NCBI GenBank assembly: GCA_012295275.1
Contig: CM022676.1
Coordinates: 13,206,001-13,270,000, forward strand
Source of the DNA: Chrysomallon squamiferum
Lineage: Eukaryota; Animalia; Mollusca
Length of the DNA stretch: 64,000 nucleotides
Direction: 5' to 3'
In this document: positions 709 to 51,930 of the stretch, piece by piece
How positions within the stretch are numbered: the stretch's first letter is position 1
Layout: each line of letters starts with the position of its first letter
The notes under the pieces: model-generated
Databases searched by the model: none
Seen by the model: only the letters and a program-made list of their open reading frames with translations
What the model was told of the DNA's origin: nothing
Position numbers and translations under genes: made by a program

Positions 709-1349
709 ATAACAGATCAACAAGTGTTCCTACAGTGCTACCACAATCAACTTCTTCCTGTAATTTAGTTTGTATTATCCTGATTACTGTTGTCAGTGTC
801 ACAGGTGTTTGCATAATCATAGTATGTTGTTTGATATCACTAAGAAACAAAAATACAAAAAAGAACAATAAAAATGAAAATGTACAACTGGGCAGTGAAA
901 TGAGCATTGAAAAGACTCACACGAAAGCAGCATCTTCTACTGATAACAAAGCAGAAGAAAACTGTAACATCCAAGAGAACATTGACAAAAAAAGTGATAC
1001 TGAAGATGTAGAAAGTTCACTGTCTTTCAAAGAAAGGATTCCTAATAAAGCTGGTTCAACCAATACATCCGGTTACCATGGAAATCCTGGAGCAGATGAA
1101 ATATCTGAAGATTACTCAGATAATCAGACCAATGTGCAGCCTGCAAATCAACCAGTTAGTAATGATGTCTGTGAAGAACACACAGAATATGAAGTCTGTC
1201 AACAGACAGTCAGTGATTCACTGAATAAAACTGATGATATGAGTGACAGTACAACAGTGAACCAACATCCTGTCAGACAGAATCACAATGATGTTGATCA
1301 TCAGATTAAAGAATGTTCAGGGATACATGTTACCATCATTAATGTTTAG
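709..1349 (+). CDS. Terminal exon of a type-I membrane receptor (gene 0): stalk, Cys-rich TM, ~170-aa acidic/polar cytoplasmic tail
   Basis: Acceptor cttttcttctttgacag|AT (phase 1). Open frame (D)NRSTSVPT...LVCIILITVVSVTGVCIIIVCCLISL-RNKNTKK...HVTIINV-TAG. The hydrophobic run is followed by a basic stop-transfer stretch. Upstream exons are not in the window. Confidence 0.8.
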
Positions 1350-2861
1350 TACACATAGCTACTACACCACATGATAGCTTATTTTAAATAAATTCTAGAT
1401 GCCAGTGATTGTTTGTGGATGCTGCTTTACTAATCGAGGAACAGCTTCATTTCTGTCTTTTATCTCTGATATAACAAAATGATAGCTTTTAAAAATGTCT
1501 GTATTGTGTTGATGGTTTTTATTCCAGACTGAGTAATAGGCTTATTAACATGGATAAATGTACAACTTAATGCTTGTCCTTCACAAAATCTTTTATAAAT
1601 ACATTTTAACACTTTTGATTATGATGTTTGCAGTAAGAACTTGTATGATTGGTTAACAGTATGCTATCTGTGCTGTCAGGGTGTTTTATTGTGGAATGTC
1701 CTGTATGGATGTTTTAATGAGACGGAAAAGAATATTTACATTTGATCTGATTATATTTCTGATTTATTATCTGAAATTATAGTTTGTAAATTAGATATTA
1801 CTGTTACTTGTCTAGTTTTAGTAATCAGATTATACTTTTTACATCACCTTGTCCTTTGATATTATAATAATAATAATATTATTATTAACATTATTATTTA
1901 TTGGATATTTTTCTTTTTCTTTTTTAAAATGTATTTTCTCCACTTCACTTGTTTTTACCATACTAAAGCTTAATTCCTACACATTTTTATTTTATTCATA
2001 TTAATATGTTTATATTAGAATCGACAACAACAGAAACAACACCATCAAGCAGCAAGTAATGTAATCACATTGTTAGCCCTAACCTTGTGCTAATCATTCA
2101 TGTAACCTCAGTTCCCCTTCCACTGTTCTTAATAAAACCATCTGAAATCTTTATATGCAAAAACACTAATCAGAAACTAGTCAAGAATGCATGAAAATTA
2201 TTCTTTTCAAAATATAATATGATCTCATCTAATGAACACATTTCATTATTAAATTAACGTAAATTATGCAAGTTTATGGAATCTGAGTAAACACAGACTT
2301 AAGACAGCCATAACGAAGGTGTTGACTCGGGCAAAATGATGGATACCACTGACATGGATGATAGCAACATAGTGGTCATTGCTGACATCCTAGTCTCAGT
2401 AAAAGTCCCAGCCAATGTTATATGCATTCACTTTAACTGGTTAGTGGTAGACAGAGTTCAGCCAGTCAGTGCAGAATCAATGTTTTTTAACCTCTGTTAA
2501 TTTGGCTTACAAGCAGACAAAAACTTTATGAATTGCATGGAGAAAAAGATAAAGATTTGCTCATAAACGGAGTGTTGTTGTTTCTTTGATCGTGAGTTTT
2601 TCTGTGAATTCATAACCTGTATGTAAAACAGGATGTTTTAAACACTCAACAGTGAAAACCATGTTAAATATTTTGCAAGCATCAGGCTCTGGCTGCTTTT
2701 AGCCCCATTGGAAAGCTATTAAAATATGTAAAAACGGTGACCATTATAGTAGGTTCAGTTGATTATTTTCAGTGAAAAACATTGGCTGCTGGCGGTTATA
2801 AACCAGTGACTGCACAGAACAGCTCATTTAAAGAAGGAAATGCTTTTGTGTGAATTTGTGG

Positions 2862-2901
2862 TGGGATTTTGAACAGCTGACTGTTAGACGAGTTTCGACT
2901 G
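2862..2901. mobile_element. Terminal inverted-repeat-like end of a Tc1/mariner(pogo)-type DNA transposon fragment (copy at ~37036-37075)
   Basis: Ends ...ctgttagacgagtttcgactg; the reverse complement begins CAGTCGAAACTCG, a CAGT terminus typical of the Tc1/mariner-pogo group. Partner TIR not found. Confidence 0.35.
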
Positions 2902-50629: not shown

Positions 50630-51810
50630 TTCCAGTATGTCCAAGTGCTTATCCTGAAAAATGTAAATTACTCTGTTAATTATTTTAATATCCTTTTTTT
50701 TTTTTTTTTATTAGTGTTCTATTATTATTTTCTTTTCTTTTTTAAATGGGGTTATCGTTATATATTAAAGTTACGCCTACTCCAACCATTATTTTGTTTT
50801 TTTCTAAATTAAAATTATATTATTATTACAGAATATATTAATGATTTTTAAGCCTTCAAGAGCAAGCTAATCCTCTACAAGATATTAACTATAATTATGC
50901 CTTCAAATCTATTAAATTCTTAACACTATTTACATAAACAAAATAAAATTAAATTAAAAATAATGATAATAATACTTGTAATAATAATAATAAACAGAAT
51001 AACTGCATTATTTGGTATATTATTTAAAATTTATGAATGTTTAATTTTTGTTTTAATTTATTTATTTATTTATTTACTTGAAAGAAAAGTACTAATTAAA
51101 AACTATGTATTAAACTGTTTGGCAAGGGATGTTCTTGTAAAGTTTTCTATCTTTTTTTCGAATATTTTTGGGGGTTTAATTATTTTACATATACTGTAAC
51201 TTATTTACAGGCCATCATAATAAATATTAAAAATTAGAAGGAATATGACCAGCACACACACACACACACACACACACACACACACAAAAACCCTTAAAAC
51301 TTGAGTAAAAAGTATAAAGAGAAATTTAAAAAACAAAAATGTAAAGAACATATTTTTCTTTCACTCCAAATAACAAACTGCATATCGTACGGTAAAGTGA
51401 CGTTTCATATGAAAGTGTATACTAAACACTATTACTACAGTGTATTACACACTAATATATAAATTTATTTATTTCCACCTGCTTTATAAAACCGAAAAAT
51501 ACTTTTATAAAAAAAGGGGAAAATGGTCAATTTACACTTCAAAGTGACTGATTTATGGTTGCAGTAATAGCAAAATATTCGACTAATGAAGGCGCAGACA
51601 TTACTCTGAGTGATTATAATGCAAACGTCAGTCCTCCCACAATCCCAGTCGCCCAGTCGATAATAACAGTGCCAACAAAATAAAGCGCTATTCTTCAGTT
51701 TTTTGAGTTTATCCAATATTTTAATCATCCAGCTTAGTTTAAATAAAGGCAAAATAAAACATGAAAACAACGTAAAGAAGCAAATAAAAACATAAATACT
51801 AATTACGTAC

Positions 51811-51930
51811 CAGGACTGGTTTTCTTAACTCTTTACCAAACTTATCCTCGACGAAATAAATGGGCTGTTCATAGTATGGACCAACAGGAACGATAACTCG
51901 TAACGGCACAAATTACGTCACCGGAAAAAA
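51811..51930 (-). promoter_or_regulatory. Probable non-coding first exon and promoter of gene B
   Basis: Donor CTG|gtacgt at 51811/51810; locally CpG-richer; CRE-like TGACGTAA (51913-51920) adjacent to an ETS-like CCGGAA (51921-51926). Confidence 0.45.

Follow-up and report, generated by a model that had tools for sequence, protein, structure and literature searches.

A decaying segment of a probable gastropod Ig-superfamily receptor complex with built-in ITAMs in Chrysomallon squamiferum

The window, i.e. the whole 64,000-nucleotide stretch of Chrysomallon squamiferum DNA analysed here, is probably a decaying piece of a gastropod innate Ig receptor complex that evolves by birth and death and carries built-in ITAMs. 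Its Ig-superfamily (IgSF) content comprised genes A, B and C and a lone last exon, D, all broken or partial copies of surface receptor genes. The first-pass annotation had counted four IgSF genes or fragments; the receptor units were present, but five fits better, as A resembles two fused genes, with a V-I-C2 stub joined to a V domain, eight Ig domains, an FN3 domain, a transmembrane (TM) segment and two ITAMs. Ig exons of A, B and C had AG/GT ends in phase 1. Pfam recognised Ig domains in 16 of 26 exon pieces (E ≤ 0.1), alongside three FN3 or FN3-like and two ITAM matches. Weak non-Ig Pfam matches were dropped as chance, as were those to P0044, P0046 and P0047, and positions 52000–64000 had no match among 53 fetched proteins.

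The 5' part of gene A (A1), on the plus strand, was closest to Gigantopelta aegis P0008. Its leader exon (6927–6981), with a predicted signal peptide, resembled the N-terminus of that protein, and was preceded by a leader-like remnant with a non-GT donor (6516–6571, +), at which block 6438–6582 was 71% like 6843–6993. The V-set domain (V1; 8801–9160; Pfam V-set, E = 4e-4; 55% to P0008) had four invariant cysteines and kept the C22/C102 core disulfide, with the canonical C-strand Trp replaced. Its AF2 model (pLDDT 91) matched an antibody VH with Z 15.2 and rmsd 1.9 (107 aligned), and V1 is, in this predicted structure, a true V-set fold. A word-based search with V1 alone returned 0 of 396 candidates, which reflects a weak method, since 55% relatives exist. 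An I-set exon followed (9332–9592; Pfam; 51% to P0008 domain 2), and then a C2-set exon (10769–10975) that ended before its second cysteine, had no donor and was 62–68% like P0006, P0008 and P0015 over its first ~65 residues only. Judging from the sequence, this exon is likely the fusion point. As assembled, gene A is a pseudogene, and likely a hybrid created by a deletion that joined a 5' end of P0008 type to a longer nine-Ig gene.

Downstream, the second part (A2, +) began with a V-type domain (V2; 11524–11829; 31% to V1), for which no leader of its own was found. A run of seven Ig exons spanned 13063–18173 (13063–13401; 14343–14608, frameshifted; 14914–15234, with a stop at 15117; 15548–15813, with a doubtful donor at 15813; 16084–16368; 17275–17541; and 17877–18173). 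Next came an I-set plus FN3 exon (20608–21246; 57–61% to five G. aegis proteins) with a stop at 21048, a partial tandem copy of the 3' half of FN3 (21259–21437) and the TM exon (22451–22588; 44–56% to G. aegis TM exons). The probable last coding exon, presumably spliced in at 25269–25285, resembled the C-terminal end of G. aegis P0005. The same 135-bp patch was also present at 4043 (+) and 35922 (−), two of the copies being identical at 134 of 135 positions.

The 83-residue tail of A contained two non-overlapping ITAMs, a number attained in only 2 of 100,000 shuffles. A carries YxxL/I-x6-9-YxxL/I in a cytoplasmic tail after a TM segment, as expected of an ITAM receptor. The first ITAM exon (22926–23036, +) encoded YxxL-x8-YxxI followed by YxN and passed the Pfam PF02189 cut-off (22.5 versus 22.2 bits); the second (23126–23233, +) encoded YxxL-x8-YxxL followed by YxN and was assigned by regular expression and conservation, its 16.8 bits lying below the cut-off. 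This ITAM+YxN unit, present twice in A and conserved in G. aegis, was shared by P0005, P0008, P0017, P0020 and P0023. ITAMs recruit Syk, and YxN recruits a Grb2-type adaptor. Most six-frame ITAM-pattern matches in the window were ignored, being located in AT-rich introns, and no ITIM tail was present within the window.

The remaining units were shaped by an inverted duplication detected by self-BLAST, in which block 265–5587 had a copy of 89–95% identity at 33441–39516; the block held an internal tandem repeat, and bases 1–264 of the window had no partner. Gene B (30013–33399, +) was a truncated V-C2 gene with a leader (30013–30079), a V domain (30735–31043; 31% to Haliotis P0018) and a C2 exon (33089–33399; 41% to G. 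aegis P0038) that is truncated where the duplicated block cuts in. Gene C (38440–51930, −; V-C-TM; 45–65% to G. aegis P0038/P0039) comprised a possible 5' UTR exon near 51930–51811, a leader (50653–50554), a V domain (46884–46567), a C-type Ig domain split over two exons (45113–44995 and 43377–43152) and a TM/tail exon (39084–38440), frameshifted after the TM segment and putatively belonging to the same gene. None of its three domains matched Pfam, but Atlas assigned Ig folds, and the C-type fold of the homologue had a TM-score of 0.68 to a C1-set domain. For P0039, the C-type homologue, AF2 gave a poor model (pLDDT 45), and its Foldseek matches to TCR, Fab and butyrophilin (TM-score 0.2–0.3) were discarded. 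Between 39084 and 43152 there was no alternative TM exon for C: five hydrophobic frames were all low-complexity and intron-like. The TM exon shared by C and D had no detectable homology to the TM segments of P0039 and P0042.

Unit D (709–1349, +), an open frame with a phase-1 acceptor, encoded a stalk, a Cys-rich TM segment and a tail of ~165 residues, and is the last exon of a gene whose preceding part either lies beyond the window or has disappeared. It was a 91–95% inverted copy of the 3' block of C, with 19 mismatches to the last exon of C. The two last exons differed in 5 synonymous and 11 non-synonymous codons, numbers too small to call selection. None of the three tyrosines in its tail fitted an ITAM or ITIM. 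D shows a TM and tail exon only, with no Ig domain of its own inside the window, so that its Ig status is deduced from C. The first-pass annotation had described differing tails and both orientations. The two ITAMs in A uphold the former, but the "tail-less" state of C depends on one extra base beside an A-run. As to the latter, C lies on the minus strand and A, B and D on the plus strand, but an assembly gap of 200 N (23740–23939) separates the inverted copies, and the relative orientation of its two sides is given by the scaffolding. The reported pseudogenising lesions were found, namely a frameshift and two stops in A and truncated C2 exons in A and B, as were several duplications (the inverted block, its internal tandem repeat, the partial FN3 copy and the leader-like remnant).

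Contigs from four public sequencing runs (three DNA, one RNA) were compared over 20590–23260 only; runs X6, X7 and X9–X12, whose share was small or nil, were left out and carry no weight as evidence. All four runs contained other copies from the window's own species that differed in letters and structure; structural variants occurred in several runs, where alleles and paralogues are indistinguishable. At position 21048, all contigs listed in the four runs had a sense codon and none had the stop, an absence that proves nothing because contigs drop rare variants. Summed contig depth was not used as a measure of copy number or expression. RNA run X8, which has no tissue label, does not demonstrate transcription, since no splice joint occurred among the rows listed and one contig continued unspliced through an intron.

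The nearest proteins to the window genes were from G. aegis (45–67%), in which at least 20 gene models, some of them on short scaffolds and possibly alleles, recombined the modules of the window. Eleven lay on one 53.39-Mb sequence and four had near-consecutive accessions (XP_041372792–798). P0042 combined homologues of V1, A5, C-V and C-C, P0038 those of C-V, C-C and the C2 domain of B, and P0008 joined A1 to the 3' end of A2. These relatives ended in ITAM, ITIM or motif-free tails: among the 11 TM-bearing models scanned, three had strict ITAMs (P0005, P0008 and P0020) and one, P0010, had three ITIMs, a number reached in 11 of 20,000 shuffles. P0010 was 67–73% like the ITAM-type P0008 and P0005 in proximal domains, the V domain being missing from its model. 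In KIR/LILR/SIRP, NITR and CHIR, paralogous genes lie clustered on both strands and have tails that either activate or inhibit. The presence of pseudogenes and hybrid genes in a multigene cluster, and the occurrence of activating and inhibitory tails within one family in G. aegis, are in line with the proposed KIR/LILR-like analogy. As had been predicted, automatic labels included hemicentin-, nephrin-, syg-2-, titin- and CD22-like as well as uncharacterized.

Other explanations were weighed against an innate receptor complex. The family could have arisen by lineage-specific expansion of adhesion or neural-wiring molecules of nephrin/SYG-2 type, whose tyrosine motifs would act in signalling to the cytoskeleton or for engulfment and not in sensing microbes. 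A2 shares the layout of nephrin and Sns (about nine Ig domains, one FN3 domain and a TM segment), and nephrin-named proteins were matched at 23–27%. Nor was V divergence in excess: the four V domains of the window had 14–32% mutual identity, in keeping with their description as highly divergent, but V1-type domains averaged 57.8% identity versus 59.5% for the adjacent I-set domain (15 pairs; lower in 9 of 15) and diverged no faster than their neighbours. Against this, the gastropod set stood apart from nephrin/SYG-2 and from sidestep in a tree that did not include molluscan nephrin (molluscan clade support 87/87, unstarred), and none of eight nephrin/SYG-2/sidestep-like tails (P0029, P0030, P0032–P0037) had an ITAM. 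Wiring genes do not usually show pseudogenes, shuffling or ITAM/ITIM tails. The number of G. aegis models, their separate position in the tree and the extra copies in the window's species also speak against single-copy 1:1 nephrin or sidestep orthologues, and an expansion of wiring genes is unlikely.

Part of the picture might instead stem from the assembly: the family would be real, but haplotype contigs scaffolded side by side and homopolymer errors would account for much of its apparent rearrangement and for some of the lesions. The gap between the inverted copies, the position of the A and C frameshifts within homopolymer runs and the stop missing from the listed contigs fit such an origin, although the last point is uninformative. 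Overall it appears very unlikely, as the copies differ by 5–11%, are flanked by unlike sequence at either end and hold an internal tandem repeat, the probable last exon of A resumes past the gap on the same strand, and the exons truncated at 10975 and 33399 break off within contigs. We consider most improbable a complex for allorecognition or gamete recognition on the pattern of Hydractinia Alr or Botryllus FcoR, with receptors binding self alleles in trans: no fusion reaction is known in solitary snails, and nothing in the analysis points specifically to allorecognition. The ingredients do recall Alr, with V/I-set and Fn3 domains, ITAM/ITIM tails and pseudogenes, yet V1 retains the core disulfide absent from many Alr domains (PMC9546547); FcoR carries ITIM/hemITAM (PMC12582321).

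The comparisons below rest on the accessible parts of the reports cited. Pacific oyster CgIgR is likewise a molluscan Ig receptor with a TM segment and its own ITAM, and is reported to bind bacteria, recruit Syk and signal via ITAM-Syk-ERK; it is a single gene with five Ig domains, one ITAM and no FN3 domain described, whereas the window family, compared by description and not by sequence homology, is multigene and shuffling, with repeated ITAM+YxN (PMC6994640). Hydractinia Alr similarly consists of clustered invertebrate IgSF genes and pseudogenes, with V-set, I-set and Fn3-like domains on single exons; many of its domains lack both core disulfide and Trp, unlike V1, in which only the Trp is replaced, and the window family has up to nine Ig domains (PMC9546547). 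Vertebrate CEACAM paired receptors share clustered paralogues in both orientations and activating or inhibitory tails, and CEACAM3 has an intrinsic ITAM like gene A; the identity of P0010 to P0008/P0005 is below the 80–93% of Xenopus CEACAM pairs (PMC5112662). Unlike CEACAM, the window family has a long nephrin-like ectodomain with FN3 and presumably arose independently; near-identical ligand domains and gene conversion are features of the vertebrate receptors. The pearl oyster Ig-FN3-TM cluster, in haplotype non-syntenic regions, resembles it by description, not homology, in variable Ig number, FN3, TM and a proposed immune role, with ITAM/ITIM unmentioned in the available text (PMC9646362). 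Biomphalaria PTC1/PTC2 are likewise gastropod clusters prone to structural instability, their single-pass receptors bearing Ig or FN3 domains; they differ in encoding one-Ig or FN3 proteins, in the absence of "ITAM" from both main texts as available, and in being tied by genetics to parasite resistance (PMC13712769, PMC10875847). The complex had been called probably undescribed: no published description of the family was found in a literature search with little coverage of subscription journals, but these related molluscan cases are published.

Modular phase-1 V/C2/I/FN3 exons are reassorted between the paralogues. Under the favoured reading of an innate receptor complex, genes of the cluster would be duplicated, have their domains shuffled and be lost over time, and their products would likely act as sensors of microbes. 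Intact A-type paralogues may bind non-self ligand via the V domain, whereupon a Src-family kinase would phosphorylate the ITAM and Syk would be recruited, with YxN engaging a Grb2-type adaptor; signalling could drive phagocytosis or haemocyte activation, counterbalanced by ITIM-bearing relatives, while short V-C members such as C might be decoys or co-receptors. ITAM-Syk also serves beyond immunity, in clearing dead cells, according to the accessible text (PMC9546547).

Molluscan immune-receptor diversity is usually framed by secreted lectins (FREPs, C1q) plus individual genes, CgIgR among them. A large membrane Ig family that shuffles its domains and has built-in ITAM and ITIM tails, scattered under a dozen automatic names, would be the third example among invertebrates, following Hydractinia and Botryllus, of Ig receptors that work by activation and inhibition, this time in a solitary animal, and its members would be tangible candidates for recognising symbionts or pathogens. 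More tentatively, and with some doubt, gastropods might have independently built an equivalent of the leukocyte receptor complex: a chromosome-scale, haplotype-variable cluster of nephrin-like and V-C Ig genes that swaps modules and ITAM/ITIM tails and, in vent snails, sorts eaten from symbiont bacteria. In the available part of Lan et al. 2021, an Ig family expanded in vent snails, orthogroup OG0000013 ("CEACAM5"), counts 130 members in G. aegis, 101 in C. squamiferum, 59 in Lottia, 103 in Bathymodiolus and 0 in cephalopods; described by a count and a name, it is a possible counterpart of the window family, and eight genes named CEACAM5-, nephrin- or hemicentin-like are listed as high in the symbiont organ (PMC7895826).

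Gene models for the four IgSF receptor units (A–D) were built from splice sites and reading frames; introns were spliceosomal and GC content was 25–34%. Gene A (+) comprised a leader exon at 6927, a first V exon (V1, 8801), an I-set exon (9332), a C2 exon (10769) truncated ahead of the second cysteine, another V exon (11524) followed by seven further Ig exons, an I-set+FN3 exon (20608), a transmembrane (TM) exon (22451) and two small tail exons (22926 and 23126). Its frame was disrupted within a T-run of exon 14343 by a frameshift and further on by two stops (15117, 21048), and the donor at 15813 was questionable. 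Leader, V and C2 exons made up gene B (+), the last cut at about 33400. Gene C (−) comprised a leader (50653), a V exon (46884), one domain divided between two exons and, assigned by position and phase, a TM/tail exon (39084) that was frameshifted directly after the TM segment. Unit D (709–1349) was an intact twin of this last exon. Block 265–5587 recurred in inverted orientation at 33441–39516. Pfam (E ≤ 0.1) detected Ig families in 16 of 26 exon pieces, FN3-type domains in three and ITAMs in two, with no match for the three exons of gene C.

The ITAM of exon 22926 passed the Pfam cut-off (22.5 versus 22.2 bits), while that of exon 23126 fell under it (16.8 bits) and matched the consensus; of 100,000 shuffled versions of the 83-residue tail, 2 contained two motifs. 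Each motif had the form YxxL-x8-YxxI/L with a YxN after it. This unit was present twice each in the Gigantopelta aegis relatives P0005 and P0008 (XP_041378983), and a single, less strict version was present in each of P0017, P0020 and P0023. YxN is bound by Grb2-type SH2 domains. As predicted from sequence, the gene A motifs are real, which bears out the ITAM-bearing member of the first-pass annotation.

Searches with the I-set+FN3 exon (8 matches among 85 candidates), P0008 (25 among 7992) and the gene C V exon (11 matches, three discarded as chance) together yielded 20 distinct G. aegis gene models. These were named hemicentin-, nephrin-, syg-2-, titin-, CD22-, DSCAM-, L1-, NCAM- or JAM-like or uncharacterized, a wider range than the nephrin- and hemicentin-like labels correctly anticipated. 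A single 53,390,639-base sequence held eleven of them, short scaffolds held seven (in some cases possibly alleles), and two lay elsewhere; near-consecutive accessions suggest tandem order for four. Nephrin/SYG-2 rows (96/92) and sidestep-like rows (100/100) separated from the molluscan set (87/87, with long Mytilus branches) in a proximal-region tree with 19 rows, none of them a molluscan nephrin. With 20 models in G. aegis and this separation, the window genes are not single-copy nephrin or sidestep orthologues.

P0008 was intact (SP-V-6 Ig-FN3-TM-2×ITAM). Because its start matched A1, the V-I-C2 5' stub of gene A (55, 51 and 62% over domains 1–3), and its end matched A2, the longer ITAM-bearing part, gene A is likely a deletion hybrid, although it may instead be one gene carrying an internal V, like P0022 or P0042. 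Modules are reassorted among family members. P0042 combined homologues of V1, the window domain A5 and both gene C domains; P0038 combined gene C domains with the C2 of gene B; and in Haliotis P0018 a B-like V followed an A-like end whose tail was ITAM-like. Among 11 TM-bearing G. aegis models scanned, strict ITAMs were found in three and three ITIMs in P0010 (11 of 20,000 shuffles), which shared 67–73% identity with ITAM members in proximal domains; the remaining tails were degenerate, motif-free or mis-annotated. P0010 and Mytilus edulis P0028 (gastropod and bivalve) had similar tandem ITIM-type tail ends, hinting at an inhibitory tail old in molluscs. A glutamate lay in the TM segment of P0017, P0023 and P0018, as in receptors and adaptors pairing via charged TM residues.

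The V1 model (8-row alignment, pLDDT 91) matched antibody VH (Z 15.2) and CD8-alpha (Z 14.6), identifying a V-set domain with an additional invariant cysteine pair and without the canonical Trp. In the Atlas, the gene C V domain resembled unnamed molluscan clusters (0.95–0.96) and V-set clusters (0.91). The C-type Ig domain of gene C (44995–45113 and 43152–43377, −) was split by a phase-0 intron and invisible to Pfam. The counterpart of this domain in P0039, a homologue of gene C, matched C1/C2-set domains (TM-score 0.68), and gene C is therefore a V-C receptor; tapasin/TAPBPL C1-set domains were the best structural matches. The V-like domains had been described as highly divergent, and this held between the four in the window (14–32% identity), each belonging to its own subfamily with relatives elsewhere at 31–55%. 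It did not extend to rate: V1-type domains averaged 57.8% identity versus 59.5% for the next I-set domain (n = 15 pairs), and thus gave no sign of changing fastest.

Public runs of the species partly contained region 20500–23300 in 10 of 12 listed cases. Four were compared over 20590–23260: X1, X2 and X3 (DNA or unlabelled; 862, 1376 and 1557 contig records) and X8 (RNA; 98), many records piling on a small repeat near 21920. This high-copy repeat (21920–21975), at which all four runs showed loose ends by the dozen, is probably a MITE remnant. Exon sites showed other letters in up to 8–12 contigs per run. The I-set exon had a 112-base replacement in every one of the four, and three had a shortened TM–ITAM intron. 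Position 21048 was a sense codon in every contig listed, so copies without that stop exist; contigs lose rare variants, so the window's own stop may be either genuine or an artefact. The ITAM tyrosines were untouched by the 40 variants listed (166 more were unlisted). X8 covered exons, and one contig match stopped at the ITAM1 donor. Transcription of the gene A region is only suggested, because the X8 matches listed included no splice joint and another contig spanned an intron.

An innate receptor complex evolving by birth-and-death is the most likely reading, and we consider it probable. Phase-1 exons would permit shuffling, and unequal exchange would generate hybrids and stubs. Intact A-type members might signal as the oyster CgIgR is reported to do, through ITAM-Syk (PMC6994640), ITIM members would dampen them, and short V-C members could serve as decoys or co-receptors. 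Against a strong immune reading stand the V1-type domains, which are not the fastest-changing, and the absence of an ITIM gene from the window. We regard an expansion of adhesion or wiring molecules as rather unlikely beside the ITAM tails and the tree.

That assembly inflated the rearrangement seems improbable. A 200-N gap at 23740 sits between the two inverted copies, so that their relative orientation depends on scaffolding; the short tail of gene C hangs on one base next to an A-run. Both points also weaken a strong immune reading. Allorecognition is the least probable alternative. Alr (PMC9546547) and FcoR (PMC12582321) of colonial animals follow the same logic as the snail family. Further known relatives are Xenopus CEACAM pairs as the vertebrate standard (PMC5112662) and clustered Ig-FN3-TM genes of pearl oyster, located in non-syntenic regions (PMC9646362). 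Lan et al. (PMC7895826) counted an expanded 'CEACAM5' orthogroup and listed eight similarly named genes as high in the symbiont organ; these resemble the window's family in name. Such a family is not described in the available portions of PMC7736800, a 2025 review (PMC11999971) or two Biomphalaria papers (PMC13712769, PMC10875847), and our literature search found no description of an ITAM/ITIM Ig receptor family like this one. It is a real molluscan variant of a known sort of receptor system and, in agreement with the first-pass annotation, probably undescribed.

The window had further features. A 135-bp patch at 4043 (+), 25269 (+) and 35922 (−) was identical at 134 of 135 positions between the D-side and A-side copies, with flanks about 70% alike, which indicates either conversion in the recent past or strong constraint on what is probably a last exon common to A and the D/C block. 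Block 6438–6582, second promoter/leader-like and 71% like that preceding the gene A leader, had a dead donor and is a remnant of another paralogue. By eye, a possible Ser/Thr-rich mini-exon (2019–2058, +) lay 3' of the stop of D and in the C copy, and ORFs pointed to LINE-like retrotransposon fragments at 19189–20059 (−), 49137–49917 (−) and 54301–54687.
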